Below, piece by piece: positions 6,601 to 62,713 of a stretch of 64,000 nt of DNA. Both the position numbers and the translations under genes were made by a program. The stretch is from Sphaeroforma arctica JP610 (lineage: Eukaryota). The notes beneath the pieces are model-generated. The model was not told the DNA's origin. It made no database searches and was given only the letters and a program-made list of their open reading frames with translations. How positions within the stretch are numbered: the first letter of the stretch is position 1; the number at the start of each line of letters is the position of its first letter. Where the stretch lies: assembly GCF_001186125.1 (NCBI RefSeq), contig NW_014040269.1:5493-69492 (forward strand). The letters run 5' to 3'.

Positions 6601-7575
6601 CCTCCATTACTTGTTGGAAGAATACTGGTAAGGAGTGCAACCTGAAAGGTGCACCTCTAAACCTGTATTGTTTACCTTTCCAGGTAAAACTAAAGTGCTT
6701 ACGATGGGGCTCATAAATTTACATTTGATGATACCCCTGTGTTAGGTCTATGGATATAAACACCGTAGCACCTTCCATTCGTCTCAGTAACTCGTTTATA
6801 CGAGGGATATGGATACTATGAGTAGGCAATAACTTATTTATTGGACTCATATCTAGACATACTCTGGCTTTCTTAAATGTTCCGTCAAAGTTGTGTTGAT
6901 CAACTGCCAATAATGCTAACTTAACTGGCGTTTGTTGGTAAGTGATTTCGATTACCCCATCGGATAACCATTCCTCAACTTGTTCTTTAACTACAGCTTC
7001 GTGTCTCCAAGAAACATAGTTTCTTGAAGGGCATTTGGGCTTAGTAAAGTCTACCTTGGTTGAGTCAAGGCTGACATATTCGTCGTTAAAACGGAATTTT
7101 GCCCAATCTGTGATCTTTATCTTCTTATTTACTAGAATCAGATCCATGATTTTGTCCGCAAAGTCAGTTATTAATGCCTTGACTGTGTCTGACGGGGGCT
7201 TATATGGTTTCAGGCAGTTATCGTCTGATTGATCCTTTAATGGATCTATGTTATTTGGTAACCCAGTTACGGTTATACCCAGAGTGAGTAAGTCACTCAT
7301 TCCGACTATTAAGTCGTACTTCTGTGATATCTTAACTATCACAGCTTGGGTAGTGATATATCTAGCATCGGCCAGGGAGATTTTAACATATGTGGCCATT
7401 GTATCACACTTAGAAGTTTTGTCATCTGCTAAGATTAGGTGAGTAGTTTGAGTTCGCCTTTCAATGTCTTTCATTAATGCAAAGCGGTCGGATATACATG
7501 AAATTTCTGAACCAGGATCAATCAATGCAAGGACTTTATTTCCATTGCAATATACAGGGATTATTACACGCTCGT
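3700..7575 (-). pseudogene. pol of Gypsy element 1
   Basis: ORF fragments 6719-7525 (PR/RT), 6109-6447 (RT/RH), 5272-6033 (RH plus MTase), 4312-4935 (INT core), 3991-4281. A degenerate chromo-like tail (FKDIIWRTDKRGYTYHRTRF...TSDAFDNQD) runs to about 3720. Confidence 0.9.
5330..5727 (-). CDS. Dam-type N6-adenine DNA methyltransferase domain within pol of element 1
   Basis: Uninterrupted and in frame with RNase H: WKCNPRWF...FGPHTVDMFVAHHNAQLKNY...GDALELDLS...ANPPWQLIAQIL...ATITLCCP...W. NPPW at 5548-5559. Confidence 0.85.
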
Positions 7576-9843
7576 CTAAAGAGTCGTTCTATTTCCTTTG
7601 TAACGATTGTACCTGAAAGTACTTTCACTCCAACTTAATGTCGGGCTTTTGTCACAAGACTTGGCGTGATAGCCATTGGTCTTCTCACACTTGTCACACT
7701 TAGTAAGAAAGTGTGTACATGTGGATGCATGTCTGCCATTCCAATAACCGTTAGGGGTCAATTGGTACATATCATACCCACACTATGCGTCGGCACATTT
7801 CTTAATCTCCTTAAATGGAGGTTCCTTGTCCTTCGCCTCCGCGCGTGCCCGTTTATTGGGCCGCGTTGATTGAGTGGAGTCGCGAGCACGTGTCTGGTTA
7901 GGACGCGTCTGATGAGGTTTCTCATATGACGTCTGGCGTGAGAGATATCCTTGATCAGTGAGCTCGCGCGGTTTCTTATGTACCGCCTTCCCCTTCGAGG
8001 CTACTCGCGTGTGCGGGAAAAAAGGTGGATACAGTATCAAAAAACTGTTCCCACGTAAGTCGGGATAGATGAAACTTTGTTTCATGTCCCTTGTCTCGAG
8101 CTTCAGTGGCGTATTTACGTCGCAACTCGGTGTACAGACTTTCACGGTCGTTGTTCCCTATGTTCTTACAGAAAACATGCATACCAGGAACTCGTACCAT
8201 CGCTGCGCATTGTCTTATCAAATTTCAGAATATAACTCTGAATAGGAGTATTCTCAACTGGTTCAGTTAAGATTGAACTCAATCCTGGACTTCGCATGTC
8301 CTTGCTTAATAAGAACGTAACCAACCAACACATAGCTGGCCAGTCACGACAAGTGTCGAGCTCATGCTGGTGTTGCTGCAGGATCAAATAACTTGTTCCT
8401 GTAGGGTCAAACGACTGCATTAAAGCAGAAATCCATTGCTGGGGAGCGATATCATTCGTCTCCAGCATGACCGTAAACGCATTAAGCGTACGGGTTAGCG
8501 TGTCGAGGTCATGGTTGTTTATAAACTCGACTTGCTTGCTGTTGGCATCCCAGTTCGACTTAAGTAGACTGATCTGTCCTTTGTACTTCTGGTTATCCCG
8601 GTGGTCTTGCCCACGTTGGGCCTGAAGTAGCTGATCGATGCGCTTCTGCTTGATCGCGATCATATTAACAAAATATGATACGTCATCAGCACGGTGCTCG
8701 GCATGGGCGATTTCCATCTTAATGGTGTAATCGTCGACCGACTTATTAAGTTCGGTCACCTCGTCAGAGTGAAAATCCTCTGCGGGCTGGTGTAATGCTG
8801 TGCGATCGATTAAATTCGACATCGTTAACACGTTTACGGGAGTGTTTATTACCCCTTGTAAAGTCTATGGTCGAGGCCTTTCGGTGCTCTGTTCCTTGGA
8901 TAGTAGTTGGTATTATAATCTTGAGTGATTCATGCGTCTGGATAACATATCCAGTCTTAACTGGTTTCCGACGATTGTCATCCCAGTTGGGTAAAGGTGG
9001 CGGAGTATTTTTACCTGCCTCTAGGTCTATAATACCCTCAAGGACGGGCGACTCGTGGCCGGGCGTTAGAACAGGCGAATAATTAGCCTGGAGTTCTGGT
9101 GGTAGTACCTCATAAGGTATAGATAAGCTGAGCACATCTGGCTCATCTGCCACAGGTGTAGCGCTCAGGCCTTTACGCTTTTCGGGCGTAATTGCCAGTC
9201 GACGTTCTGTTCACTTCTGTAAGGCTTCAGTAATGCCCGGAGAAACATGCTCGCGTAAGTGCTGTGTATGTTTTCCTGATCTATACATTCGATCTACATG
9301 TTCAACAGTCATGCCTTCCATAAAGGCGGCTAACTGATTCTTAAGATCAGTGTTTTCAGTAATTAACTTACCTATGCGCGTTGATTCAGTGGTCTCGGAC
9401 GTAGATTCGGGTTTGCCACTTGAGCTTGCCTCCTCTTCTGGTTCCGGTATAGGTACCTTCTGAGATTCGTCTTTGTCCCATATAATTGGGGACTTTTCTT
9501 TCTGAGTTTCGTCAGAAGAGTTGGTTGGGGCGTCTTGAGACGTATCGCTTGCCTCACTTCTTGGCTTCGTAAATGCAAGCTTTGAAGTTGAGGCAATAGT
9601 TGGCCCTCGGGCTCTATCTGTAGGAGTAGTTTTAATCGGAGTGGCTACATCCTCATCCGAGGCATTGTCTTGACTATTATTGTCGGAGACAAGTGCTTCG
9701 GCTACGGTGCGGTTAAACGCATCGGCAGCAGCTGCGGTTGCTTCTGCGGCAGCGGTAGCTGTTGCAGCGATAGCAACTTTTCTTTCCATCATTTTACGTT
9801 CGGCCTTGCGTTTCTTTGCAGGCGTATTGTCTTTCTTTGTCAT
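7576..9843 (-). pseudogene. gag-like region of Gypsy element 1
   Basis: Fragmented ORFs 9211-9843, 8764-9153, 8166-8831, 7783-8221 and 7576-7770 lie upstream of the protease. C-terminal Cys/His motifs (CDKCEKTNGYHAKSC). Confidence 0.7.
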
Positions 9844-10305
9844 AATCTTAACTTATGACATCAGTCTTATTCTCTTAAGGAATGACTGTGCTTAAGAAAA
9901 AATTCGTGGTAGTTATCTACCTTTACTTTTAAGTAGTCTAAATAATGAATACCTTTGCTAAATTTGAAATGTGAAGTTTCGGTCTATCAAGGCGATATTA
10001 ACGCCTTAGAGTAATTAAACGCTTAGGTTAAGTCTAAGTATAGTTGAATTCGAAATAAATAGACGAAATGAGGTATTAAAGTTAGGTATGCCTCGTGAAA
10101 ACCGCAATACTCTGAGGGATTGTGAGGCTGAGACATTGCCTATATATAATTCTCTTAGTACTTTTTTCGCCGAAGGGATTTTATTTAATGTTTCGTTGTC
10201 GCTCTATTAGAAACTACGGTATGTTTCGTTGGGGCGAATCCGAGAGACTCAAAAAATCCTATCTTTAGAAAAAAAGAAAAGAAGACTAACCAATAACTTG
10301 CCACT

Positions 10306-14264: not shown

Positions 14265-14490
14265 TGCTTGTGGTTACTTATATGCGCGTACAAATGAACT
14301 ACTTATGTGTGCACATATACACATAAATATATTTTTCTTATCAGTATGTTACAGTCAATATTAACTATCAAATTATTGGCGCGCACTTCGCTATAGAATA
14401 ATTTTTAATTCCGGGACGGCTCAGACGGGCCAGACCCTGTTTATTAATTCAGTGGGTGAAGTGCTATATTTTCATCTCTTTTGTCTAATA

Positions 14491-15112
14491 CGACACCCGT
14501 CACTATAAAATTATTAACGCCCGAGCCCTAGTATTCCTATGTATATGCCTATATGGTGAATTTGTTTTGAATTTATGTTCTAAAAATACAATTGCGGTTA
14601 ATGAAATCACAGAATAGGACAAAATCCCTTGGACCTGAAATTTACAACAGAAGGGGACAAAACCAAATTCAACATTGTTGAACTACAGTGCAATTTGTGC
14701 AAACCAAACGATTATATTTTACATAGCCCTCTTTTCTTCTCTTGTGTTTTATGTATATTATAAGAAGGCTGTGGGCTATGAAACGAGGTGTTTTTTAATA
14801 ATATTCAGAACTTCAGAAGTATGGATCCACGAATTCATGCTCACACAGGTTTAACAGAACATTGGCTCTCTCTAGCTAGTCTGAGGCGTTGTTTTGTATT
14901 TCAGGTGACATGTGTAGATTATGTACCGAAAACTGATACTTGAGTGTTGTAATAACTTGTATCGGTAATTTTTTTTGCGGTGTACATACTGAATAGTTCG
15001 GTACTTGTGGCCATACGTGGGCACATAAATATCAACCCTACCTTTGCGAACGGACCGGATGCGGTTTTGGACACGGGCTCGGGTGATAATAATTTTATAG
15101 TGACAGGTGTCG
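14491..15112. mobile_element. Tc1/mariner-type MITE
   Basis: 38-bp TIRs CGACACCCGTCACTATAAAATTATTAACGCCCGAGCCC / GGGCTCGGGTGATAATAATTTTATAGTGACAGGTGTCG, flanked by TA on both sides. Confidence 0.8.
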
Positions 15113-15149
15113 TATAGGCTAGGTCATGTATGTACATCTTTTGAATGTC

Positions 15150-15480
15150 CCTTTTCCCCCGCACAGGGGGGTATAAGAGTGCTGTGATGGGGGTGAGCCT
15201 ATGAGAGTGTGAGGTATATTTATTTTAAAATTTGCATAGTATTTTTAGATAAGCTCGAAATTTGAAAATTTGAAAATTTGTTGATCAATAAAAAGTGTGT
15301 TCAAAGAAGTGTGATTCTATTGTGGCTTCGAAAACCCTGTCAGTTGGCAACAATTGTTTAATGTTTCTGATTTTCTGCGACAGATATTTTCAATTTTTTC
15401 CCCGCAGGGGTATAAGGATACACTCATTACATTGTGATGGGTGTGGGACTGTGGGGTATATGTTCAAATTTGCATAGTTG
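15150..15480. repeat. Degenerate repeat, unit about 240 bp, whose sub-block recurs at 20750-20882
   Basis: TTTTCCCC-GCA-GGGGTATAAG...AAATTTGCATAGT at about 15152 and 15397. AAGCTCGAA...GTCAGTTGGCAA...TTTCTGATTTT-TGCGACA at about 15250 and 20750. Confidence 0.65.
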
Positions 15481-15601
15481 TAAAGCCAACTGGTCGTGAC
15501 ACGAAAGTACAAGGGTTTGAGAAAACTAAGATTTATTTGCCTTTGGTTGGTCCCAAGCTCTACAGTTGAAAAGTGAGCTTGGGAGAACCAAACCTTCGTA
15601 T

Positions 15602-18600
15602 TGATATCGGAGCAAACGCAAAGCCCGTTGGATTCGTCAAGATAGTTGGCCCGCGCAAATATCCAACTGCCACGTTTGCGATTTTTCCAAGTTAATACCA
15701 TTATAGGTACACAACAGCAGTAGGTCGTGGGTTAAGTATACCTGTTGGGGGACTCATAGTACCAAGTGACTGCCAAAAAGAAATAGGAATAGGGAAATAT
15801 TTGTCCGGTGGACGGGGAACACTAGATATAAGGCCAGCAATAGTATAAGGCCATGAGGAGGCATGCCAAGTAACTGGTGCTCATTTTTTAGAAATGTGTC
15901 CGGCGCATGTGGAATAACAATAGGCATAGCTATTAGCGAATGGAAGGAGAAAGGAAGCTATGAACATGAAGCCCAATGTGGCAAGATAGCGATAGCCTTA
16001 CAGTAGCGAGTAGCTAGGAAACGGCGGAAGAACTGGTGGTAAATGGGCCACGGTGGGTTAACTAATACGAAAGAACCCGTAAGGTTGAATTATTCAGCTC
16101 GGCAACGTTCGGTACCCCCCAATGCTGCACAATAACGGGGAAGATGATGACATGTGGAACTCGCATAGAGATCAACATCAGACACCACCCATTTCTTGAA
16201 GAAGAGGGAAATCCATGCGGGATTGATCATCAACTCACCTGAATATGCATGAGGGTGAGGAGATAGAGTTGCAACTAGCGAAGGATGCGGCGGAATCTCA
16301 TCCACCGGGCCCCAAGTAACATGTTTATGAACAAAAAGCATTCTGGGGTCCAATTGCGCAGGCTGGCGGGAAAGCCTATCTGCTACGTAATTCCATTTAC
16401 CGGGTATGTGACGGATATCCACGCGATGGTGGCGGATTTTCTCCACGAGACGCTTAAGGCGATCACCACGAGCAGTCTTAAGGAAAGAGAAATTAACATG
16501 GAAGAAAGTAAGCACATTAAGGTGATCCGTCCAGACAGTTAGGGCATGATAATTGGCAGTAATAGTCATCTCCTCCTTATCAACAGCATAAGCAATAGCC
16601 ATAATTTATAGGTCACAAATATGATAACGACGTTGGGCCGCATTCAATTTGGTACCTCGGTATGAGAATGGAAAAAGACGGTCGATGCCATTAATACAAA
16701 AACCGTCAACACGAGGGTCAACCACCTGAGATTAATCAGTAACCACGGTGGAATGGCAAGAGTATGTACTTGCAGGAGCCAGGAAAAGTTTCTCCCGCTC
16801 AGAAAGTGTTTCTTGCTGGGTTTACCTGACTCGTTTATGGGCCGGGAGTGTAAAATCAGGGGTCGTAGGGAAGGGGAAGGAACACTTCTGAGACGAAAGG
16901 CTACCGAGAGGTCGTTGCTGTGGCAGTGGGGTAGGGGTACGTTGGGCAGCAAGGCGGCGCTTTTGGCGGGATAGGCTTTTGTCTAAGGCAGCAGCAGCAG
17001 TATTGAGTCGCTTAGAACTCAAGGGTTGAACCCAATCCTTTGGGAAAGGTGCAGGCAACTCACCCTGACGAGGAATCCAGACAAAAAGTCCACAACCAAT
17101 GCCAATGGGGCATGCGTCAACAAACATGTGGAGATAATGGGCAGGGTCAGGGGAAACTAACATAATGGTACCTTGAATAGCCTCGTTAATCATCGTATTC
17201 GCAGCATGACAATCTGCAGAATAATGAAAACGTGTATTCTTAGACGTTAAGTCCGTCAATGGGCCATCATAATGGCCAAATTGGGGATATATTGAGACCA
17301 CCAATTGAGAGTGGCACAAAACACTTCGACTTTGTCCTTGGTTTTTGGTTGGGGCATAGAAACAATATCATTGGCGGTATTCTGTAATTGATGTATAATT
17401 ATGGATAGTTTGGCGACCATAAAATATTTTGGTACTTCCCTAAGGAGCATTGAAAGACACTTGGAAGCCCCCGTAAACGGATTTTCATTTTAACACAAAT
17501 ACGCGCATACGCAAGCTTATCATTCCAGTGCTGAGAAATTGCCTCGCGGCTATAGTGGGCCTTGGCGCCGTCATCGACAAAGTGCTTGAGGGCTTGGCGG
17601 AGGGCAGCAAATAAACCATCCACAAAGGCTTGCAAATCAACGGTCATCATTTTCACCCCGAAGACTCCATTGACAGGTTGCCAAACATCACCTGTAGACG
17701 TTATCCAGATAAGATACCGACGAGAGCGCTTTGTGCAACGCAATTGGTTAAAGCTGCATGCCATATACATTGTAGAAACAATGTCACCCCGCCGGATATG
17801 ATCTAAACATTCCTGCCCAGTAAGGCATGGGGTAGGAAACAACGTCAAAATTTTCATTGTTAACCTTATAATTTTGGCAATAGCGAACATCCTTGATAAT
17901 CTTAGGCTTCACACGGGGGTTCTTTCGTGCCAAAACAGCACTAGACATATAGGGTGAGAAATAATCTCCAGGTTCTATGACACCGCGAGCGTAGTCACGG
18001 GCGCATATCTCTTGTTCTCATTGTATATACTGTGGGTTCTTGAGCTTGTATATGATACGCTTAGGCCTGGCATTTGCCTTGATTTTTATATCGACCTCAT
18101 AATCACGGATAGTATTGTGATTGGATTCGTCGTAACGAATGCTATTGAACAAATCTTTGAACTCTTTGACCTGTTGTAGTGTTTTGTTCAAATAAAGAGC
18201 AGTAGCATTAACTCCCATCCCAGTTGTATTCCTCAAGGGTACCCGGAGAATCACGGCAACGGCGTTTGAATTCAACAACAGCAGCCTCATCAATAAGAGC
18301 TGGTACCAAGAGGCCAATATAAGGGTTAGACGGAGACGCCAAAGAAGATGGAGACGCAGACTGAATGACAGGTGCACGTTCTGAACTGAAGGCCAAATGT
18401 GGGTTGTTCGGTAGATTTTTTCCAGTAGGGTTTAGGGTTTTTGGTGCGCAAGAGAATATATCTCTGAGTAATGAAGCTTAATAAAAAGTCGCATCCATTA
18501 GGAATTTCATCAGAAAGGTAGAAAACAGAGTCCTTTGTTTCAAAATAACTCGTTTGGGAAGCATTAGTAAATATCTGTATAAGCACAGAGATATCAGTTT

Positions 18601-20743
18601 GTTGAGTAGGGGGTTGAAGCGTAACACCTCCGAACGGCTTCATTAATACATGCTCGATGTTCTGGATTTTCAGACCCTCAGATATTGCCAACTGTTTATT
18701 GACGAGATTTGGTATAGCGCTATCATTCACATAGTATAACACACAAGAAGAGACGAAGTAAGCAGGAACCACCGGGCCCACGCAATATCAATCGGCGCGG
18801 ATATTTAGGGTACCAGAGAAATTGTTATATGGGCGGGCATTGGGCAACTTGGTGACCAGGTTTGTAGCAGTTGTAGCACACATTCTCACCGTCAGCGTTT
18901 TGCCTGGAGTAACAGGGTTAGCTGTAGGTGTGCGGGAGCGTGCGGGGCGCACATCTTGGGACTGGGAGCGACCATGATTATCATTGAACGCAGGTGTAGT
19001 AGACTGGGAGCGGGAACCAACGCCAGAATCATTGCGTGAAGAGCTGGAATCATAATCGTCAGAACGGCCGTGTCGAGGACGAGAAATACCGGCACGGTCG
19101 CCATGAGAGTCAGAGTCACGACGGTTGCCACGGCCATTAACATACCCTCGGTCGCGACTGTCATGATCGACACGATCACGGTTGCGATCTGCACGATGGG
19201 TGTCATCACCACGGCGAGTGTTACCGCCAGCATTGTTCCGACCAGCACGACCTTGATCACGGGTAGTGGGGCGTCCTCGGTCTCTCTCACGAAGGCGTTT
19301 AATTGCTCGTGGTTCCGGAGGGTAATTGGAATACTTTCGAACAAACGATTCCTCCAGGATTGCAACACCGATAGAGCACCCTGCCTGCTGGTTATGAAAC
19401 CCAATGAAGAAAGCATTTTCCAAATTCTCCAACCAAATCTGGAAGAATTCAGCGATACGCTGATGAAAATTATCCAGGTAACGTTCAATCAGAGTGGAAT
19501 CGTGGCGTAGCACGTGGTAAAGGCGATCCATGTAAAAAGGGTCACTGGTCAACGGCAGGAGTAAAGCGTGGACAGAACGACGGTCCTGGCTAGCACCCTT
19601 ATGGAGATTCTCCAACAACATGTCGTTGATAATGAACTCATTTTGAGTAGACAGCTTGGGGGCAGTACGCTTCCATGCTTTCGTATAAGGGGTCACGATG
19701 GTAGAGCTCGGGGCGCTCAGGGACCCATGTTTTGAGGGATTCCTCGTACACGAAACCGTCGCCCCAGTCCTTAATCTCACCATTCTCATCGAAGGCCCTC
19801 AGCAGCACGTAACATCCAGCGGCTGATTTAGGAGGAATATTATCCTTCTCGTCATCAGATTCGTCTTCAGTTTCACGCTGTTGACGCTGTTCATTCTCCT
19901 TAGCTTTGACAGCCTGCTCCTAAGCACGCTGAGCTGCCCGCTCAACTTTCTGTTCGTCCGTAAGGTTGGTTTCCTCATCAACTTGGGCATTCTTATCTTC
20001 AATACTCCTGACCAATTCTTTAATTTTAGCCTGGGCACGTAAGAGTTCAACACGTAATTCCAAGGCAGACATCTGTGGGGCCTGTGTCTCCAAGTAAGCC
20101 TTAGCTCTCAGGGGTACACGGTTGGTTAATCCTTGGTGCACGTAAGCACCTTGGATTTCTTCCAGATCACGGTAAGCGAGCATATGAATTCACGCAGCCA
20201 ACAGATCCGGTAATAAGGGAGCCCCTTATCGGGTCCTTTGAGGGAAGCCGCGATTTAGAAAATACGGGATTCCTGCCCCATCTTGAAGAATAGGTGGCGC
20301 ATAGGTCCAAATTCCCGCAACACGTAAGCAATCAATTAAATCGCCGTTGTGGAAGGGGTAATGAACAGGTCAATCAAATGCCAATAGGAAGTGTCCAAAT
20401 ACTTCATTAAGGCATTGATCTTGGCACTCCGTCCGGAAGAAGTAGACGTATCATCCAAGCTACGGAAAGGTTTCTGTACAATCTAATTTTGAATTTTGCG
20501 TACCCAAGGCACAATAGGGCGATCGAGGTCGAAACGCAGCAGATAAGGCTCGTCATTGTCTTTCTGGGCATTGCCCTTGCCGTTGTTCTTTGGCATTGTT
20601 GATAAGAAAGCACACTCTACGTAACAGGAGAGCAAACGCAAAGCCCGTTGGATTGGTCAAGGCTGTTGGCCCGCGCAAATATCCAACTGCCACGTTGGCG
20701 GGGTTTCTAAGGTGTCACTGGTTTAGGACCACCAGGTTTTACA
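15602..20743 (-). mobile_element. Gypsy-like LTR retrotransposon 2 (degenerate): gag-PR-RT-RH-Dam MTase, no integrase visible
   Basis: About 80-bp direct repeat at 15610-15692 and 20630-20711. Zinc knuckle CYNCYKPGHQVAQC (about 18838-18880), RT HFVDDG, RNase H MFVDACPIGIGCGL, WTDH and RHIPGKWNYVADRLSR. Confidence 0.82.
15850..16230 (-). pseudogene. Dam-type adenine methyltransferase domain of element 2
   Basis: INPAWISLFF...DVDLYASSTCHHLPRY...* FNLTGSFVLVNPPWPIYHQFF...AIAILPHW...* ...PIVIPHAPDTFL, in one frame through two stops. NPPW at 16048-16059. Confidence 0.8.
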
Positions 20744-20899
20744 TAGTGGACAAGCTCGAAGATTGAACATATGACCAATGAAAAGTGCGTTTAAGAAATG
20801 TGATTTTATTGGCTGCGAAAAACCCGGTCAGTTGGCAATTGTATAGCGTTTCTGATTTTTTGCGACACAAATTTCAATTTTTGTGTTTTGTGTTCAGCT

Positions 20900-21330
20900 G
20901 GACAATCTACCAAACGTGATGATTCTACCAAACGTGTATTTTTTAAAAAAATAATAAAATTGTGTCCCTGTCGCATTGTTGGGAAAGATTAGTGAAAACC
21001 GTCAGTTCCATTTGCCGGAACTATGAATATCAGTTCGTTACAAAATCAGCTGGAAAGATGATTCTACCGAAAAGACAACTCTCGTGTATTAATTTTTACT
21101 TTTATTGTGTCCCTGTCGCATTGATGGGAAATATTAGTGAAAATCGTCAGTTACATTTGCCGGAACTTTGAATAACAGTTCGTCACAAAATCAGCTGGAA
21201 AGATGATTCTACCGAAAAACAACTCTCGTGTATTTAATAATTTTTTTATTGTGTCCCTCGTCGCATTGATGGGAAAGATTAGTGAAAACCGTCAGTTCCA
21301 TTTGCTGGAACTTTGAATACCAGTTCGGGA
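20900..21330. repeat. Tandem repeat, unit about 145 bp, about 3 copies
   Basis: TTGTGTCCCT-GTCGCATTG-TGGGAAA-ATTAGTGAAAA-CGTCAGTT-CATTTGC-GGAACT at about 20960, 21105 and 21249. Confidence 0.9.
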
Positions 21331-21456
21331 CAATAAATGCATGGCCCTCTGGATTTGGGCCTCGAGCAGAAATCAGGTTTCTTCCGACGACAATCGTAAC
21401 TTTTGGCAGATCCAAAGCAACCCAAATCCAGAGCGCCATGGCAGATTACATAGCCG

Positions 21457-24400
21457 TTTTAGGACAAACCTAGTTTGTCCACTTTTAGGTCTTAAACCTC
21501 AACCGAGTTTTGTTCCCGACTGCCACGCGACTATTGAACGGTCCATGTGCAGCAGAATATTCTGTTCATTATATGTAAGTTTTTCATCTTGTAATAAAAG
21601 TTTAGTTACTAAGAAACATCTGAAGGATAGGTATATATAGGTTATGGGCCTTTTATTGACTTACATATCCGTTCACTAATCTACGATGCTTTCTAGCTGA
21701 CCCAAAATCCCAACCATCTCTTGGTCGATCCTGACTGGATTACTGATCTTGATATGGCATCTACGGCCACCAGTACAAATGATCTTTCTCCTATTCTTCA
21801 CTACACCCCTCCTACTGAGGTAGTTACTGAAACCTAAAGGAATGGACACCTGCCCAGACGGCCTCCATGAAAGAGCTCTTTATAGATGGTCTTTCTGACG
21901 TCGACAAGTACCATACTCAGAACGTCTATCTCATGTCCTTTAAGAATCGCGATGGCATTACCATTTACCATATGCTAGAGTATCTTGAGAAGCTGCATGC
22001 GACGCCTTCGCTCTCCTCCAATGACGAAGCGATCCCAGGCGTTGCACGAACTACACCAGCCGCTTAACTAACAATCCAGGATGTTGTACGGATGATAAAT
22101 GAACTTAAGACAGCCACCTAAAAGCCTAACAATCGTCAAATGCTCTGTTTTGTGTGTCAGAAGTCGACACACGTCTCCTCTCTTTGTCCTAAGGCCTGCG
22201 GTCGTTGTGGCGACATGACCCACAACAGTAGATCCTGTACCGCACAGTCCCTGAAATGCACACAATGTTCAAAGAAAAAACATTTAGCGATTGTGTGCTC
22301 AAAACGTAATAAACATCATTTTCCCTATCCTGGCATCTCTACCATTGCACGCATAACAATACCCACTATTTGTAAAGCTACGCAATCTTCTCTATACATA
22401 ACACTGACTCACTACTTGTTGACGGAGGCGCCACAGTAAATTATATGCACTGCTTAGCACGGAAAATACTCACAAACATAGAAACGGGTAAATTTCTTTT
22501 ACGGCTGGCCGATAACAGCATTAAATACATCACTGTCCGCGGGCACATGACCTCAACTAGGCTCTACATACCTGGATCCAGATCTTACCCAAGGACTCTT
22601 CGCCCAAAACAATCTACAAGATTGTGGTTTAACCGTAAAGTTTACCGGCGATAGCCAAGAATGCTACCTTGGACTCCGCACGTCCTCCATTACGCTACTA
22701 CCAACTTCAAGTGGCTACTATGTCTCCTACGACTCACTACAACAACTATTCTCTCCTCCGAAGGCCTCACTTCTGACTACTTCACGTCCACTTTCTACCC
22801 TGCCCACCACCCGCGCCCCTCTACTGGCTAATCCATCTCACAATCCTACTGTCTTTCTCCCACCGTCTAACGTAGCTACGATAACGGCCAGCAACTCAGC
22901 GTCACCTACCAATTTATCTAGCATCACACCTAACCCTACCAATTTATCTAGCATCACACCTAACCCAACGCAACCTTCCCCCCCTCCAACAACATTAACT
23001 TCTCTTCCAGAAACTACCCACCCTCAATCTTCAACAACACGTACACCACACACTACTATGACATCGCAATCGCAGAGTCACTCTCCGTATGGCAAAGTAT
23101 TGAGAATATAACACTCACACATCCTTCCCCTCTTAACGTCACGACAGATAAGTGGGTGTTCAACTCCGAACTTCTTAAGGCGGCACTAGACTTCTTAGGG
23201 GATACACCTATACTTGACATATGTGCTTCTAAAGTCACTGCCTAATTTCCCCGATACGTGTCACCAGAAGGTGGTGGTATAGTATAGCCCTCGACTGGTC
23301 CGATATAGATCTCCTCCAGGAACTGGCATATGTTTGTCCACCATGGTCACTCATCAAGGACACACTCGCAGCAAATACAAAGGCAGCTAGTACATTAGTT
23401 CTTGTCGCACCCCTTCGCCCTGCAGCTCCTTGGTGGCCGGCACTCCTCTAGCACATCTACAAAGTCAACCCTTTATAGTTCAGAACACGGCGACTTGGTA
23501 CCTCTTCGGCTGGTAAACCCAGGTTGTGATCTCAACCTGGCTATTGCCTATGCGAAGGCTAACCCAGAATTTCCATAACATTGTAACACATGTATTGAGG
23601 GCAAACTTAAAGCTACCAATGTCCCCCATCAATCTACTTACACAATCTATGGACCCGGCGAGAGGTTCCACACTGACCTCCAGGGGCCCACTCCCACCAA
23701 GTCGATATGAAAATATCTACATTATGAATATGTTTGATGCAAGTACGCGTTACGGTCTTCACAAAGCCATCGCTAACGAGCAAACCATGTTTAATAATGA
23801 TAATCAATTACTTACGGACGTCCCAGCCTTCTGGGTACCGGACACTCTTACGGCCGATAACGACACGCCGCATACAACTCAGACGTCCGCCACCTTACTC
23901 TCCATCGCAGAATGCCAAAGTCAAACGTCCACATGACACACTGAACGGTTTGATTCGATTACTACTTATTGACTCCGGGATGCCCCCGTCCTGCCTGGGA
24001 AGATGCTCTCCTCTGGGCAGGCGATATTCGTCACGGGACTCTCGGAGAAAACGACAAGCTCCGCACTCCCGCACAAACATTTCTCCAAGAGGCTCACGCA
24101 CGCGATCCCAAAGCTCGGTTCGGCTGTGTAGTTATGTTTTAACTCCGCGGAAAAGCTGCCACACGCGCCACGAAGCATGAACCACAAGTGGGTTTTGGCG
24201 TCTTGCTCGGTCGTAGTTTTAACTCTACCCCCTACTGTTACCGAATACAGAAATTCGCTACGCAGCGGCAAATCGATACCCAAGATGTTCAATTTATTGC
24301 GGAAGAAAACGCACAGTGGTCTCCCGATGGGCGTACTGCCACCCTCTCCACGACTACTAGCTCGTATAATATACATCCTGACTGGTCCCTAACGAACAAG

Positions 24401-26480
24401 CCCCTCTGACACTGCTATTCCTTTTCAAGGACATATTCTTCCGGTTGGCCCCGCTTGTACCAGACGTTCAACAGGCCAATCTACCGCCTGAACCCCAAAA
24501 CGCACCACTGCCCCCCGCTTTCACTGATCCTTCCCCTTCACCTACCACTAGTTACACCCCACCCCACCTACTACACACCAGCCCACTCCGACCTCACAAC
24601 CCACCGCACACACCCCCACTACCTTACCCACAACCCACTGCACACACCCCCACTACCTTACCCACACCCCAAACGCTCCACCTCCCTCATCTTCCACTCA
24701 CACCTATGCCTCCTACCCCCTGCCACCCCTCCTTTCACTGTCACTTCTCACCAACCCATTCCACCACTGACAGCCCCTTACCGCCCACACCAGCCACACC
24801 TCCTGTAATATTTTTTACGCCGCCGCACCCATTCCCCAGTTCTTTAATCACTGTCCCTCGCCCCTGCCAACAACCACCACTCACATCTCTCCCCAGACCT
24901 GACACTCGTACACCACCGGCGCCTCCACCACCTAACTCTTCTTCATTCATCGATTCCCTCCCTCTACACCGCATGTCGCCTTTGTCGACCACATTTAGCG
25001 AGGCCAGGCCACCCGTCGACTCGGCCGAAGCCTCGATCGCCTACCTCCGTGAGCACCCTGCCCACATTTCTTCCGTGCGCACTATTACACCCACGACTCG
25101 CTCCAAAATCACCCTGTTTGAGGCTGCATCTTTCCAAGACCCTAACGTCACCAAATCTATTGCAAGCGCACAGAAATCCAAATCGTGGCCTGCATGGGCC
25201 GCTGCCATAGACACCGAGCGTGCTCATCATATCCGGAATGACCTCGCTGATGTCATCCCCCTGACGGACGTCCCCAAGGACTCAAAACATCATTCATAGT
25301 AAATATGCATTTGCACTTAAACATGACGAGCATGGCCAGCTGACCCGCTATAGGGCGAGGATGGTTGCTCGTGATGACGAGCAACAACACAGCGATAGTT
25401 TCACCGATACTTACGCACCGGCAGTCCATTCTACCGCATACGTCTCTTCTTTGTTAAAGCTACTTTTGAACGGAAAGTGGTCCACTACTTCGACGTTACA
25501 TCCGCCTATCTTTACAGCAAACTGAATTTTCCAGTCTATATGCTGCCACCAAAGGGGTCTGTCGAACTGGGTCACTAGCCTCTTAATCACGTCCTCAAGC
25601 TGAAGCGCGGCCTCTATGGACTTAAACAGTCCGGCCGACTCTGGAATTTAGACATTGGTGCCAAGCTTCGCCACGCTGATTTTCAACAATCGGACGCTGA
25701 CGAGACCATCTGAATTCATCGTTCCCAGGACCTTGTCGTCGTCATTTATGTCGATGAGATTCTTCCGGCCGTTGACCCACAGACTACGGACGATCAATGA
25801 CTCTACATACAACTCTCTACCCACTACAACATGACTAGCCTGGGCATAGCTCGTCATGTCGTCGGGTTCCGTGTTATACAGGATGGATCAGGGACTATCT
25901 CCCTTTTACAAGACGCATATATATACAGCGTATGATCGACACATTCCCATGTCCAGGACACTCCTCCGAAACCAACACCTGGCACTGACACACATCCAGG
26001 AGAACTAACTGGCGAGCCATTCTCTGGTCGATTCCGCAGTCTTCTTGGCGCCCTGAGCTTTGCTGTCAATATGACACGTGTCGACATAGTTTGCACACTT
26101 AGCCAACTCGCTGCATTTTCTGCTGCTCCATTGGTTCCGCACTACGATGCTCTCATTAGGATCCTACTCTAACTTGCAGGGACGATTAATTTTGCACTTA
26201 CATTTCATCCTCGTACATCCACTCAGACCTTGGATATCGCCCTGTTATCTTATGCGGACTCCGACTGGGCAACAAGCCCTCTCACCCGGAAATCACAAAC
26301 AGGTACTCTTATCTGTTTCAACTCTAACCCCATATATTGGCGGTCGCAAAAATAGAAAACGGTTTCCATCAGCTCTGGAGAAGCCGAATATATCGCAAGA
26401 TCTGATACAACCCGCTCTAAAGCCTGGATTCACAACCTAATGACGGCATTTGGCTACAAATTAACTCTTTCCAACCCGCT
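21457..26480 (+). mobile_element. Ty1/Copia LTR retrotransposon (degenerate): gag-PR-Dam MTase-INT-RT-RH; 3' end lost
   Basis: PBS-like GGTTATGGGCC (21640-21650) and three CCHC knuckles (22140-22300). Integrase: CNTCIEGK, HTDLQGP, PPYSPSQNAKV. RT: RARMVAR, DVTSAYL, LKRGLYGLKQSGRLWN, IYVDE. RNase H: YADSDWA...RKSQTG...SSGEAEYIA. Copia domain order (INT before RT). Confidence 0.92.
23147..23490 (+). pseudogene. Dam-type adenine methyltransferase domain inside Copia pol (not visible in the supplied ORF track)
   Basis: Manual translation: DKWVFNSELLKAALDFLGDTPILDICASKVTA*FPRYVSPEGG, then (frameshift) ALDWSDIDLLQELAYVCPPWSLIKDTLAANTKAASTLVLVAPLRPAAPWWPALL. CPPW at 23335-23346. Confidence 0.78.
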
Positions 26481-27036
26481 TGCATATGAGTCTCGGAAAA
26501 ATTCAACTGCTGACAGTAAAAATTCATTTTTGTTACACAAATTCTGGGTTTATATCTATGTATTGTTTCGGTCGTATGACCAAGGTCAGACTCTTTAACA
26601 ATATACTACTCCTTCCTATCACCAGTCATACCGCCCGTGTAGCCTATTGGTCCTAGATCATTACCAATACTTCCCCATTGGTCATGAGCATCCACTGATG
26701 ACTGTATTGCAGCTTTTGCCATCCCAAAACTACAGTATTCTCCATAATATAGCAGTTGTATGGACTAGTTTCGTGAAAATTGTTCAAACACAGGATCGTA
26801 CTTTTTGCACCTTTTTTACGACTTTGTTTGACCCTTGTGCATTCCGCACTGAGAACGTGAATCAATTGGATATCGTAAAGTCCACCCATAATACTACTTG
26901 TAGGGCCCGGCCCGCCCGCGGAATTTGCACTACCTACAGGGTCGTACATTTTAAACACACAGAACAAAACGCAAAACATAGATATATAGGCACAAAAAAA
27001 ACACACACAAAACTACAAATAAAGCATACTATAACC

Positions 27037-28994
27037 ATGTCTAATCCAGAGACTCTGGTAGTGTACAACACAATCACACGTGAATTCCTAAATTGGTTTA
27101 GACCTAACTACAACTTTGATCAACATACTGATTTTGAAAGCAAATAATGCCAAGTTGAGATAAATACTTTTGGCCATTCAGCCAGACGATCTCTGTCGAT
27201 ATTTCAATTAACTTGCATATAGTGTCCAGGTTTCTGGACCAGACGATAGGCCTACTTTGAGAAGGGCTAACGGTATTCTCTTCGATAAGAAGGCGATATC
27301 ATGGTACATGCCACGAAATAATGAGTGGGACATAGTAGATGATTAGTGTAAACCAATTAAATCACCGGCGCTGAACAATCTGTTCAAACAAGTTGCACGT
27401 TGGGAGCTTCGTGGCGAAGGTAAGCCAAGATCAGAGAAGAAACCACTTGAGTATAATGAGTATAAGAACATATTGAAAATCAATCTTGAACACGCCAGCT
27501 TCCAAAACTCAACTCTGCATGGATTGTGGACGTGGACGTTTCAACTTGTGTGCAGGGTCGATGATGCGTGTAACTTGAAGTACGAGTATTTGAAAAATAT
27601 AGCAGGGGTATTAAAACTGCTTATTTATAGAGGTCGTGCAGAGCAAAAATATAAGCAACAGAAATCAAGTATCAAGGCAGGTAGTACTAGGCAGCATGGA
27701 TTCTTATTTGTGTGCGCTTGTGGGTTTGACCGCCCATCTGATTGAAAGGTTCGACGATAGTGCTGATCCGTCCACGTAGATTTTAGAGTGAATGTTCACT
27801 GCCAATGGTCAAACTGGTAGGGATGATCAGTTGAAAACTGACTACTCAAGAAGTGCACTGAAGAGAATAGTAGCACTAGATGGGTTTGAGGCAATGGGAT
27901 CGGTACCTAACATATGTACACATAGTTTTAGGAAATGTCCATGCACATATGTACAACGTAGGGGAACTACCAAGGGGGACGTTAATGCTAGGGGTAGATG
28001 GGCTATAAAACTTGACGGAACGCCGAGATACAGACAAAGAAGGTAAGTGGACACATACACAAGTAACCTGCTGCCTTATCCAGACGCAAAGGTATCCGAA
28101 CAACTTTGCGGTCCTAGAGGACCTTGTATATATAAAGTACAGCAAAATGCAGAGATAATAGACACCGAGGAGATTTTAAGCGGTGTAATACCAGGTCTTT
28201 ATGACCTAACAAACATACACGAAGCGCACAAAAGACTATTTGCCACCATTAGGTTATACTTAGCGCTAACGGACAGTGTACTGATAAGTGTGGAATTTAA
28301 ACAGACAGTTATGGCACACATGAATGAGAACTTTAACATACATCCAGACACTGATTTGACAAAAGTTGTTGTCAAACAACAAGTACTAATAGTACGCGAT
28401 AGTAATGACAGCTTTCGCATACAAGAGATCGATGGCGCACCAGGGGTCGGGAATGTAAAACACATGAATGTGCAAGACTTGCACAATGAAATATTAGGAC
28501 TCACAGTAGAAGTACGCCACCTGAAACAAATGACGGAGGAGGATAAGCTGGAGTACATCGCACAAAATACTAGACTAAGAAAACTAGTGCTGACGACAAG
28601 GAAAGACATGGCAGCAGTTTTCCACCGTACGTAACTACCATACAGAGCACGACGTAATGCGCAGAACCAACAGCAGAACAATAATCAGCAGCAAAACAAT
28701 CCACCACAAAATGATCCACCACATGTCAATCATGAACACAATCTCGGACAACAGCCAAATGTACGGGAACCAATACTTAGCAAAGGGCCTAAAACACTAT
28801 GGAACCTTTGGCTCGAATACGAAGAAGGGCTAGATAACAATAAAGCCGCGAAGAACTTCACAGATAGGGAAAGAGGACAAGTTAAAACTACCTATAGTTT
28901 TAGAAATCCCTTTTGGAGATCGATGGAGAAAAATCTATCGAAAGGACACACTGCGCAGGCCGCAATAGAGATACTGTATACTGTCTACGTAGAG
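27037..28994 (+). mobile_element. Crypton DNA transposon (tyrosine recombinase plus GCR1_C-like domain), degenerate
   Basis: YR catalytic motifs VCRVDD (about 27553), THSFRK (27918-27935), RGRW and DTY...LPYPDAKV...LC. C-terminal LSKGPKTLWNLWLEYEEGLDNNKAAKNFTDRERGQVKTTYSFRNPFW. Cut at 28995 by an LTR. Confidence 0.85.
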
Positions 28995-31163
28995 TGTAGT
29001 AAACACGTCAAATACGGTCATAAATCCTACTGAGGCTCAGTGAGCCTCGGTCAGGTATATTTATTAAGTCACTGGACTGTTTACGTGAGTTCCGTAGAGT
29101 CTCACCATATGCGACTCTATGGAACTAAAACCTGCTAATTATGTATATCCTAAACCTAACCAGATTTATCCCATCAAGGAGTTTTATTACACTCCCCCCA
29201 AGCTTGAGCATCACTGGTGATGGGAGAGCTTCTCTAAAGATGAAATTCCTTAAAATCATTGTCTTTGATGTCGAGATTATATCCGCCTGTCGCGGATCAA
29301 AGCTGTGCCTGAAGCAACAGTGCGTAACGTATTGCAATTACCTTGGAATAACGGTCCTTGCCGACCGGAACACTGGCTATGCGACGAAACTCAGGCCGCC
29401 TTGCCTATGGGAACATTTTAGGTCGAAGACGACCCATTAGCTGGCTCATCACCTTGGAGGTGGGGTGCTCGCAATTAAGTCTGCTCGAGCTAGAGACTAT
29501 TCGTGGTGCCTAGAGAATAGGAACACTTTAGGGTATAACCGACCTACAAACTGGCGTGTGCCTTCATTGTTGAAACAATAAGTATTTTAATAAAATAAGT
29601 TTAGTAGGGTCCGAAGCTATTACATCCCTGGATTCTGCAACTCTCTTCTCTTCTTTCTCGTTTGATCTGCCTTATGGTATGCGGCAATGTCATTTGGGTC
29701 ATCGAAGGCTTCTGATGTCTCCCATATGGGACTGCTTTCCTTCCACCGAACTAAGTATTCCATGACGCCGGAGTGGTCATTCTGGCGGTGTCGGATGATG
29801 TGCCTGAAAGCCGAACCCTGTTCTTGCCACATCTCGTTCGCCAGAGGTGGATCCGTTGCTCTATGTACCAAGCGCAACAGTTCCACTCTGACCGGCTTGC
29901 CCTTGAACGTGCTTGGGGTGGTGCCGTCTTTGTTCGCCAGGATATATCCTTGACCCTGTTGTTGTTTGACCACGTACGGACCAAACATTGGTCGCATTGC
30001 CTTTGTCGTTCGGCCCTCCGACTTCACCAATAACCACATCACCGTCCTGGAACGTGACTAAGTCGTACGCATGGAGTCCATCGAACTGCTTCGCCAGTGA
30101 GTCTGCATACTTATCGGTAGAATAGTATCGTGTAACCTATCCATGCGATGGGCCCACGTCTCATTGGTGACTGGCTGGCTATCTGGCAGATCGTCGGTAA
30201 AATTTGTGAACGGAACATGCTTTCTTCCAAAGTACGCACTGAATGGGGCTGTCTTGTGCCTGCGTGAGATGCGGAGATTCTGACAGAGCATGATCAATGG
30301 CAGTCTGACGTCCCACGCCGTTGGAAGCGACCTGCAGAGTTTGCTCACCCTTCGTGGATGTCTCTGTGTCTACGTTCCGCAGTTCCCAAAACATGCGGCC
30401 GGTATGGTGGTGACCCGGTATGGTGGTGACTTTGCGGGCATGATGCCTACCTCTTGCGTGAGTAGCCGTGGAATCTTGTTGGAGAATTCGCCCCCTTCGT
30501 CTGACTGGAGCTTCCGTGGGAAACCATGTGCTCCGAACACTTTCATCAGTTCGGCTGTGACATCTTCCGCGGATTTGCTCTTAGTTGCAATCAAGGTAGA
30601 GTAGCCTGGGGCTATGTCTATAACATGGAGGATTTACTTATATCCTGTCGTGGAGATGAGTGGCATGGGTATTATGTCCACCTGTATGTGGTCCCATGGA
30701 TACTTCGCATCGATGCTTATCAGGGGGTGGGACCCTTTTCTCAACACTCGTTGCCCAAGGCATGGCCTGCAATTGCAGCGTATTGTTTTGGCCAAGTCTA
30801 GTGCATTCGGCCACGAGTGACCGTTCTCCCGAAGTTGGGCCACTGTATCCTTTGCACTGTGATATCCGATCTCGTGTTGGCTCAGTGTAAGTTGGGGGCG
30901 TCTTTTCATTTCATCGGCACTCGGGTGGTCTCCCATTGCTACCTCCGTTGTGGCGATCGAAATCAGCCTCGCTATATCTAACGGAGTCGATCTTTGATTG
31001 GAGCGGGGCTCTGCATACCCTAGGCTGCGCGAGAACGAGGTGGGTAGCTGATAGCCAGACTTTGGGCCAACTTGTGCTATAACCGTGTGGCCCCATGGTG
31101 TCTTTCCACAGGCGATCTTGCCATCCTTCAAGAAAGTATGCGCTGTTCTTGGAACTAAGATTG

Positions 31164-32430: not shown

Positions 32431-33439
32431 ATGAAATGCTTTCCAGGGGCACGACTGCCAACTTCATCTATGCCTATTTTCTGTTTCACGATTCCGATTA
32501 CGCCAACACAATCACGGAGACGGAACGTCAGGCACTTACCTTTGCTTTCCGAACTGTACATAAGCGGTTGCGATTCGTTTCCAGTATGATCTCAATTGTG
32601 CTTATGTGAAATGGACCCGCCTCTGTAGCCGTTATAGCCATGTGCGCACCAGTGATTTTACGCCGGTCTATGAGACTTTCATGGCCTCCAAGGCATCCGA
32701 AGTTCCCAACTATTCGTCTACGCTGAGCCAAGTCAAACGTGCCTACCGGTTTGCCTCTGATGCCTCCTACAGGGCTGAATAGCTCCTGGTTTGGGAGCTA
32801 AAGCATATCTCCACTATGCTGCTGGATGCGGCGCCTGGTTGAGCTATGTACACCAGCGGAGTGCGATTCTGACTACTCTTTCCTGATTCCTTTTGAGACG
32901 GGTGTTTTTGCCTTTTCAAATTCTCAAACAGTCCCCCGGCCAAGTTGATGGTCTTATTCCTGTGTGGACGGCCCTCATGCGGGAGTTCGGACCGGCTGAA
33001 TTTTCGAGCCATAACCACGAGTCTCCCCGGGGCTGTCTTATAAGGGTGGACAGAATGGCCCTAGGCTCTGCACCCAGGCGCATGCACCTAGACCCTCGGT
33101 CCTAAATCACCGGCTCATCAGCACATGGACCACCATTTATTGATGAGCCTGTCTGAACTTTAGTCTGTAAATTAAATAATAGTTCGATAATGCACTTCAA
33201 CCTTGAAGTATCTCGTCTGTACAGTGAAACTTTTAATAAACCTTTTGCTGTTTAGAAGTTCTGTGTCATCTGTGTAGCAGCTAAAACACAAGAGAGTGTT
33301 TTTCTGGTCTCTTGAAAAGTTGAAATGTCACGAAAATAAAATTAGAAATAAATATAATAATTTGTACATAAATACCAACATAGCCTTCCATACTCGCTTC
33401 TACATTTCTCTTTTGTATAAGAGATGCAGCTTCGTCAGT

Positions 33440-33964
33440 ATGTTGCGTCCTCTAAGTAGGTCTGAAATTGATGAGATCGACGATACTACCAACGATATCA
33501 TTGGGCGCTCGCGGGCCTTGCTCAATATACATGGTCTAGTAGCGAACCATCCGGCGCTTTTAAAAGCGTACTGGCCCCTGAGGGAACACGTCGTTAACTC
33601 CAACAGCCTGCCACCGAGATGCCATGAACTTCTCATCCTGCGGATTGCGTTTCGAATGGATTGTGCGTACGAGTGGGAGCATCATGTTATTCGAGGGAAG
33701 AAGGTGGGAATCACGCAGCAAGAATTAGATGAAATACGGAAGATAGACGGCAGCTGGCGTTGTACGACGGATGAACTAATGGTTATGTGCGCTGATGAGT
33801 TGTTTGATAAAACTGCCCTAGGAAAAGAGACGACAGAGACTCTGAATAGTTACGGAAAAAAGGGAATCCTCGATGCTATCATGACCGTTAATATATATCG
33901 CACTCTCGCCAATATGCTACTTACTTTTGAAGTGAACGCAGATGATTTAGCTTTAGAGCATTAA
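33440..33964 (+). CDS. Carboxymuconolactone decarboxylase/AhpD-like (CMD family) protein, 174 aa, intronless
   Basis: Intact ORF from ATG 33440: LNIHGLVANHPALLKAYWPL...LPPRCHELLILRIA...CAYEWEHHV...ILDAIMTVNIY, matching the CMD-family ExxILR/YEWxHH signature. Confidence 0.85.
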   Translation: MLRPLSRSEIDEIDDTTNDIIGRSRALLNIHGLVANHPALLKAYWPLREHVVNSNSLPPRCHELLILRIAFRMDCAYEWEHHVIRGKKVGITQQELDEIRKIDGSWRCTTDELMVMCADELFDKTALGKETTETLNSYGKKGILDAIMTVNIYRTLANMLLTFEVNADDLALEH

Positions 33965-61859: not shown

Positions 61860-62712
61860 AGGACAAACCTAGTTTTATTTTTTAGGTCGTAACCCCCAAC
61901 CGGGTTTCTCTTTCGCCTCGCACAGGGGTCATATTTGCCCCATGTGCACGACGACTGGTTTATTATAAAAAGGTTGTCTATATGAAATAAGCAAAACAGT
62001 CAATGAGAAAGTTGGTTGATAGGCAGATACCTATATAGGCTATAGGCCTTTTTATTGACACTCTATCAAATTCTACATCATGCTTTCTAGCTTATGATTC
62101 CTACGATTATATGATCGAGCTTGAAGAAGAGGCTTTAACATCGATCACTGGCTTGCCGGACTGGACATGGCTACGACATCCACCAGTAAGACAGATCTAT
62201 CCAAGATGATCTACGTTCCCATCAACGATGTCGTAGATGAATCATACGAGAAAGTTCGGTAGACTCTGAAGAAAAACTGGACATCGGCTCAGGCGGCATT
62301 TGTCAAAGAAACTGATTGCATCGACATTCTAAAGTCTCTTGACCAATACTACGAAGCTAAAAATATTACTGTAGGTACGATTTGTATCTCTCTACGCCTG
62401 CAGCTCGCACCAACCATCCGCGTGGTATACCCTTGGGTCCTTTGAATCTTCTCGAGTGACGCTTTAAACGCCAGTTTAAGAATACATATTGATGGTACTC
62501 TTCTCCGTACTCTCTCACGGATGCAGGGTGAGTCTCTGTGCAGCTGGTCTCGCCGAGTCGAAGATATTCTCCTCTGGGCGAAAATCCAAGGCACTACGTT
62601 CTACCTTATTTATTGACGACCTGGCCGTCGCTGACAAGCAGCAGAACAAGAACCTGTATCTTATGTCATTCAAGTCACAAGATGACATCACCATTTATCA
62701 CATGGCGGACTA
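61860..62712 (+). mobile_element. 5' fragment (LTR, PBS, partial gag) of a Copia related to the element at 21457
   Basis: AGGACAAACCTAGTTT, TATATAGG-TAT-GGCCTTTT and ATGCTTTCTAGCT are shared with 21460-21700. Gag LFIDDLAVADKQQNKNLYLMSFKSQDDITIYHM matches LFIDGLSDVDKYHTQNVYLMSFKNRDGITIYHM. Confidence 0.85.
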
Positions 62713-62713
62713 A

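Follow-up and report, generated by a model that had tools for sequence, protein, structure and literature searches.

DAM-LTR retrotransposons have been described by Fernandez-Moreno et al. in a bioRxiv preprint of May 2026 (10.64898/2026.05.21.726589), which distinguishes five lineages, Ty3/Gypsy-like or mixed with DIRS, classified by RVT_1. In that survey, almost all DAMs carry the NPP triplet, and the ichthyosporean DAM-LTRs are without chromodomains. DNA 6mA is enriched on DAM-LTR insertions in two ichthyosporeans and in Euglena, and DAM-LTRs show more 6mA and higher expression; an assay of retrotransposon DAMs in E. coli was negative, and the model put forward, itself unproven, assigns the upkeep of the adenine mark to the host AMT1. 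The terms "copia" and "Ty1" do not occur in the main text of the preprint, and 46.1% of the DAM proteins were left without transposable element features, so that Copia cases could hide among them.

DAM domains are also known in DIRS elements, where, according to the accessible portions of two reports (PMC3783388 and PMC4738411), the methyltransferase follows RNase H in elements that have a tyrosine recombinase and neither protease nor DDE integrase. In the accessible part of their article, Iyer et al. (PMC4738411) derive the DIRS-type domain from PCIF1, an RNA enzyme, and consider it likely inactive. The capture of DNA methyltransferases into retrotransposon pol has a further parallel in C5-cytosine enzymes, which the available text of PMC5890265 places in LINE, DIRS, and Gypsy elements, with Symbiodinium Copia lacking DNMT. 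As far as the accessible text of PMC6673714 goes, the nearest Copia precedent is CopiaMBD of a centipede and spiders, in which a methyl-CpG-binding domain adjoins the integrase and is under purifying selection. A literature search, with most subscription papers and Repbase outside its scope, gave no case of a Copia element with an adenine methyltransferase.

The locus considered here lies in a stretch of 64,000 nucleotides of Sphaeroforma arctica JP610 (contig NW_014040269.1, positions 5,493 to 69,492), hereafter referred to as the window. Between 21831 and 26460, its plus strand bears a dead copy of a Copia-type element, whose translation falls into 11 segments, with 10 frame changes and 13 stops, and shows the domain order gag-protease-Ser/Thr/Pro linker-methyltransferase-integrase-reverse transcriptase (RVT_2)-RNase H (Table 1).

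Table 1. Features of the Copia-type element (window coordinates)
Feature	Coordinates	Strand	Evidence
gag region, three CCHC-like zinc knuckles, two stops	21831..22436	+	translation
Aspartic protease of Copia type (DGGAT at 22421), frame changed once at ~22545	22376..22700	+	
Ser/Thr/Pro-rich linker, ~125 residues (S, T, or P at 68 of 126)	22730..23110	+	translation
N-terminal half of Dam-like methyltransferase domain, one stop, ends at frame break	23111..23281	+	HMM, hhalign, sister contigs
C-terminal half of methyltransferase domain, CPPW (23335), two stops	23284..23496	+	HMM, hhalign, sister contigs
Zinc-finger region of GAG-pre-integrase type, degenerate (W..RL..PG, CxxC), with start of integrase core	23496..23707	+	translation
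Integrase core and C-terminal part, broken	23709..24406	+	Atlas, sister contig
Reverse transcriptase, RVT_2 (Copia) type, broken	25265..25930	+	Pfam PF07727 fragments
Ty1/Copia-type RNase H, DSDWA at 26257	26173..26460	+	motif in translation

Copia is defined by the order protease-integrase-RT-RNase H, and it is this order, together with the RVT_2 type of the reverse transcriptase, that identifies the element. In particular, three fragments within 25265 to 25710 matched RVT_2 (PF07727; E values of 1.3e-4, 1.7e-6, and 1.5e-6, each under the curated cut-off), and none of the three matched RVT_1 in Pfam. The stretch from 23709 to 23933 resembles rve/rva_4 integrase cores (Atlas score of 0.90, with 10 of 10 named matches agreeing), and one sister contig aligns to the integrase from 23984 to 24366 with 63 differences in 383 letters. 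Thus, the original assignment to Copia was borne out. For the zinc-finger region, the Pfam scan returned no family, and Atlas led from 23579 to 23707 to gag_pre-integrs (score of 0.92; PF13976 on 16% of the members of the cluster). The gag region gave a weak Pfam match to zf-CCHC_5 (E value of 0.0014, under the cut-off), and the protease and RNase H regions were without a match in the Pfam scan; here we rely on DGGAT and DSDWA, which we take to be the Copia aspartic protease motif and the Ty1/Copia-type RNase H motif, respectively. Sister contigs also align within the protease region (22409 to 22454). No repeat that could represent a pair of LTRs was found between 20300 to 21900 and 26300 to 28500, in a copy that is decayed and has other elements on both flanks.

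The segment between linker and integrase had been predicted to be a Dam-like methyltransferase from its translated peptides, all of which were found in place: TPILDICASKVTA, a stop, and FPRYVS occur in one frame, with ILDICAS at 23210, and ALDWS, LAYVCPPWSLIKDTL, and LVLVAPLRPAAPWWPALL occur in another, with CPPW at 23335; RLVNPG (23507) and CNTCIEGK (23582) come after them. The segment, 23111 to 23496, therefore spans two frames, with three stops, and a 5-letter stretch is repeated at the frame break at ~23282. As for the W-x-x-RL motif proposed to lead into CNTCIEGK, its letters are present, but the tryptophan (23496) is in a third frame and RL in another, so that the motif as a unit is something we infer. 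The heading of the original prediction was right in placing the methyltransferase before the integrase zinc finger, and its text, according to which it follows the integrase, was not.

The reference for the homology assessment was built up from an element of the same window. The minus-strand Gypsy piece 5275 to 6108 encodes RNase H followed by a weak Pfam match to Dam (E value of 0.0022), and, used as a query, it yielded 2 out of 219 candidates, namely, P0001 and P0002, open Gypsy polyproteins of ~1400 residues with PF05869 matches (E values of 7e-6 and 8e-5) and DAM domains 59 to 68% identical to that of the window Gypsy. Against an HMM built from these three domains, the C-terminal half of the Copia segment scored 29.1 bits, a value reached by none of 2000 shuffles (6.1 for the best of them); for the N-terminal half, the score was 3.2 bits, reached by 5 of 2000. 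With hhalign, the C-terminal half aligned to profile positions 51 to 103 (95%, E value of 2.8e-8) and the N-terminal half to positions 5 to 42 (12.8%, E value of 0.0022), the two halves being collinear on the profile. Furthermore, the acidic residue that comes behind the first strand is kept, ILD.CAS matching D.FA. No Pfam family, PF05869 included, matched either half when the two were scanned separately as pieces of 48 to 72 residues, the segment had no match in PHROGs, and PDB sequence searches gave nothing significant. The AlphaFold models were of low confidence (mean pLDDT of 53.5 and 43.6); fold comparison of these low-confidence models gave no Foldseek match at an E value of ≤0.001 and a best VIA Z of 3.4, with several methyltransferases among the tied Rossmann-like rows. 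On the basis of the HMM and hhalign comparisons with Gypsy Dam (PF05869) domains, the segment is a Dam-type methyltransferase homologue, as had been proposed. Its last strands appear to be missing in the window copy.

The original prediction had also considered a module swap from Gypsy. The Copia segment is just 17 to 31% identical to the five Gypsy-type methyltransferase domains compared, which leaves a recent swap from the neighboring Gypsy families unsupported; the methyltransferase tree, of six sequences and no outgroup, cannot name a donor. Like DAM-LTR retrotransposons, the element is of LTR type with a DDE integrase and a compact, DIRS-derived Dam (PF05869-like) module; it differs from them in its RVT_2 reverse transcriptase, in the module being located between protease and integrase, and in CPPW. 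With RVT_2 and the Copia order, it falls outside the five described DAM-LTR lineages. It shares with the DIRS-type domain, by homology through the Gypsy domains, membership of the Dam PF05869 family (PMC3783388 and PMC4738411, in their accessible portions), but it is not a DIRS element, as its methyltransferase domain is flanked by a protease motif and an integrase core. Judging from the available part of PMC6673714, what it has in common with CopiaMBD is an epigenetic domain adjoining the integrase in Copia pol; the cargo of CopiaMBD is a methyl-CpG reader, whereas here it is a methyltransferase homologue.

Whether this arrangement is a family trait or a one-off was approached with public contigs of the same organism as sister sequences. 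Of the seven records of run X14 matching 23120 to 23790, six are other, diverged sequences; the methyltransferase is matched by records 2, 3, and 4 and the integrase by records 2, 5, 6, and 7, so that, at 80% identity, an integrase match is present in one of three methyltransferase contigs and a methyltransferase match in one of four integrase contigs. Record 2 (1400 letters) has both pieces, at a distance of 463 letters where the window has 406, and this joint recurs in three of four runs. On the methyltransferase side, 22 letters are aligned, below the 31-letter rule for a bridge, and the bridge therefore rests on these plus an adjoining 30-letter loose end, which encodes PRFVSPEGG where the window has PRYVSPEGG. 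At the same identity, record 4 has no integrase match in 1087 letters downstream and record 7 no methyltransferase match in 2481 letters upstream, which would mean either a greater divergence or a different construction of these two; the 421 letters that record 3 has downstream, and the 7 and 55 letters that records 5 and 6 have upstream, do not suffice for a decision.

Beside their matches, records 2 and 3 have loose ends, and these were compared with the window by eye, codon by codon: 5 of 29 codons are identical, 18 differ synonymously, and 6 carry replacements. Such a predominance of synonymous changes indicates, as far as codon comparison can, a pattern of purifying selection acting on the protein during the divergence of the copies. 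Moreover, the last 9 to 10 codons of the N-terminal half are conserved in two sister contigs, and records 2 and 3 cross the ~23282 break in one frame. Beyond 23495, record 4 goes on to encode LFPAMVVKR, at a point where the window jumps directly to the zinc finger; from this extension and the 57-letter difference in record 2, a deletion of about 57 letters may be supposed to have removed the end of the domain from the window copy, and ~20 to 25 residues would normally lie between methyltransferase domain and zinc finger. Since three other contigs carry diverged versions with mostly synonymous changes and one of them, record 2, carries the integrase as well, a one-off nested insertion is unlikely, and we regard the presence of the methyltransferase in pol as a probable family-level architecture of this Copia.

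The same contigs bear on a passive origin, in which a DIRS or Gypsy DAM piece fell into one ancestral Copia and the resulting chimera was duplicated without ever being used. Nested and broken elements abound in the window, and at 62715 another methyltransferase is cut into by one of them, a gag piece; only a single contig links the two parts, out of frame; and the frame changes on either side of the methyltransferase domain. Set against this, the copy has 10 frame changes in total and no other part of it is free of them, the segment amounts to a complete domain in the same orientation, lacking any neighboring remnant of RNase H or repeat, and the window and the linking contig differ, over 9 codons within the methyltransferase, by 7 synonymous changes and 1 replacement, with 1 codon identical. 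We consider such an origin improbable.

The claimed further occurrence of the family at 61860 was confirmed in part. A gag-like match of 35 residues is present at 62606 to 62710 (+), where the changes by codon position of the plus frame are 7, 8, and 21, third positions being the most affected; the rest of the element is absent, with no protease, methyltransferase, or integrase of the focal Copia family beside the match. With just these 35 gag-like residues matching, the region was set aside as a second copy on which the architecture could be tested. In the same part of the window (62300 to 62900), a Gypsy DAM domain (NPPW at 62731, minus strand) is cut off by the plus-strand piece with its match to the focal Copia gag.

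An intact relative of the Copia element was found in none of the protein, viral, or metagenome collections searched. Protein searches, made among longer proteins only and weak as evidence, returned no relatives among 48 candidates with the C-terminal half of the methyltransferase and none among 2 with the zinc-finger piece. Pattern matches were confirmed in 0 of 600, 0 of 27, and 0 of 3 cases in viral contig scans and in 0 of 222 and 0 of 84 in metagenome contig scans, and tblastn of the Gypsy methyltransferase domain against phages gave no match.

In the window copy, the catalytic triplet reads CPPW instead of Asn-Pro-Pro, the cysteine being encoded by TGT, and the original prediction had allowed for a mutation after insertion. 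The intact Gypsy polyprotein P0002 presents CPPW at the equivalent place, while close relatives, with domains 59 to 68% identical, have NPPW; since, in addition, an Asn codon needs at least two base changes to become TGT, a mutation after insertion is the less likely explanation. Thus, CPPW is a natural variant of the Dam module and need not be a sign of decay. The alignment of record 3 runs through the motif, with 12 differences in 63 letters. The string "CPPW" does not occur in the main text of the DAM-LTR preprint (10.64898/2026.05.21.726589).

CPPW is also where the main rival explanation has to be weighed, namely, that the domain belongs to the family but is catalytically dead and, through binding to a host partner or to nucleic acid, steers integrase or packaging, much as is proposed for that of CopiaMBD, with 6mA chromatin, the RNA of the element, or RNA polymerase II as candidate partners. 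CPP in place of NPP would fit such a domain, as would the negative result of retrotransposon DAMs in E. coli (10.64898/2026.05.21.726589), the view of DIRS-type domains as inactive and derived from PCIF1 (Iyer et al., PMC4738411, in its accessible part), and a position adjoining the integrase, as in the available description of CopiaMBD (PMC6673714). However, the occurrence of CPPW in an intact Gypsy with NPPW relatives suggests that the change may be tolerated, and the acidic residue of ILD.CAS has been retained. We judge a dead, binding-only domain rather unlikely.

Our preferred reading, to which we give somewhat better than even chances, is that of a dead Copia copy with a Dam-type homologue between the Ser/Thr/Pro linker and the integrase zinc finger, likely as a trait of its family, the working copies of which would mark their own cDNA. 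The methyltransferase domain would be translated as part of Copia pol, presumably in a single open frame, and a cleavage in the Ser/Thr/Pro linker may free it from the protease. It would then stay on the N terminus of the integrase inside the particle, since no more than the ~20 to 25 residues mentioned above would separate the two; for the domain remaining joined to the integrase, we see an even chance. The fusion in one open frame postulated originally did not find support in the available copies, the window copy being broken and record 2 being out of frame between the two parts because the 464 letters between the codon starts of methyltransferase and integrase are not a multiple of three. 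There, the domain may methylate adenines on the cDNA of the element or on the RNA:DNA hybrid, and, by analogy with the preprint model, the upkeep of the mark by host AMT1 may keep the new insertion in open chromatin and transcribable. An activity of the domain on the DNA of the element is, in our estimation, possible without being the likelier outcome.

An activity directed to RNA, i.e., to the genomic RNA of the element or to a cap-adjacent adenine as in PCIF1, instead of to cDNA, would agree with the placement of the DIRS-type domain in the PCIF1 clade (Iyer et al., PMC4738411, in the text accessible) and with the lack of DNA methylation in E. coli (10.64898/2026.05.21.726589). Conversely, DAM-LTR insertions are rich in DNA 6mA in the two ichthyosporeans and Euglena (10.64898/2026.05.21.726589), and a position against the integrase would suit a DNA substrate; we hold this alternative to be very unlikely. 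Apart from this alternative, it is possible to hypothesize, albeit tentatively, that Copia captured a DAM independently and fused it to the N terminus of the integrase and not to RNase H, that the integration complex carries the domain along to the insertion site, where adenines would be marked or read by it, and that CPPW arose in both superfamilies.

Other elements of the window have the domain in a different context. The Gypsy element at 4300 to 9850 (-) is ordered RNase H-DAM (NPPW at 5559)-integrase, and the Gypsy elements of the window thus follow the RNase H-DAM arrangement found in DAM-LTR retrotransposons. At 15250 to 20900 (-), an element with gag-protease-RT-RNase H-methyltransferase (NPPW at 16059) shows no integrase or recombinase after the latter, and its terminal direct repeats change their order between the two ends, reading A-B at one and B...A at the other. 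A Gypsy integrase at 29600 to 31160 (-) follows the C-terminal end of a DAM, the rest of which is hidden by an N gap, and has a chromodomain-like tail with YLVRWK, which we take to be a chromodomain-like motif.

Further features were noticed along the window. At 14488 to 15115, inverted repeats of 41 letters, 93% complementary and 546 letters apart, possibly correspond to a MITE. Three tandem units of 145 letters, followed by a 20-letter inverted repeat (21340 to 21440), occupy 20959 to 21440 between two retroelements. A decayed Crypton-like element lies at 27000 to 29100 (+), with a GCR1_C domain (E value of 1.3e-5) and pieces that, from their motifs, we presume to be recombinase-like. An intronless ORF of the carboxymuconolactone decarboxylase family (PF02627, E value of 9.5e-10) at 33281 to 33961 (+) adjoins a WD40 gene that is spliced and runs on the opposite strand.

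Taken together, the feature is real, probably a trait of its family, as judged from short pieces of three contigs, and a new arrangement of the recently described DAM-LTR kind. If so, the capture of DAM domains would extend from DIRS and Gypsy to Copia, the other main LTR superfamily; a survey based on RVT_1 would not classify such elements, and Pfam misses the domain in the window copy. The domain would be decoupled from RNase H, its site in DIRS and in several DAM-LTR elements, and this decoupling therefore tests whether it works in reverse transcription or in integration. Since the same genome has Gypsy elements with the domain, it offers a natural comparison of 6mA between Copia and Gypsy, each with and without it. 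If the architecture is indeed a trait of the family, new insertions of this Copia would arrive with an adenine mark, or would read one.
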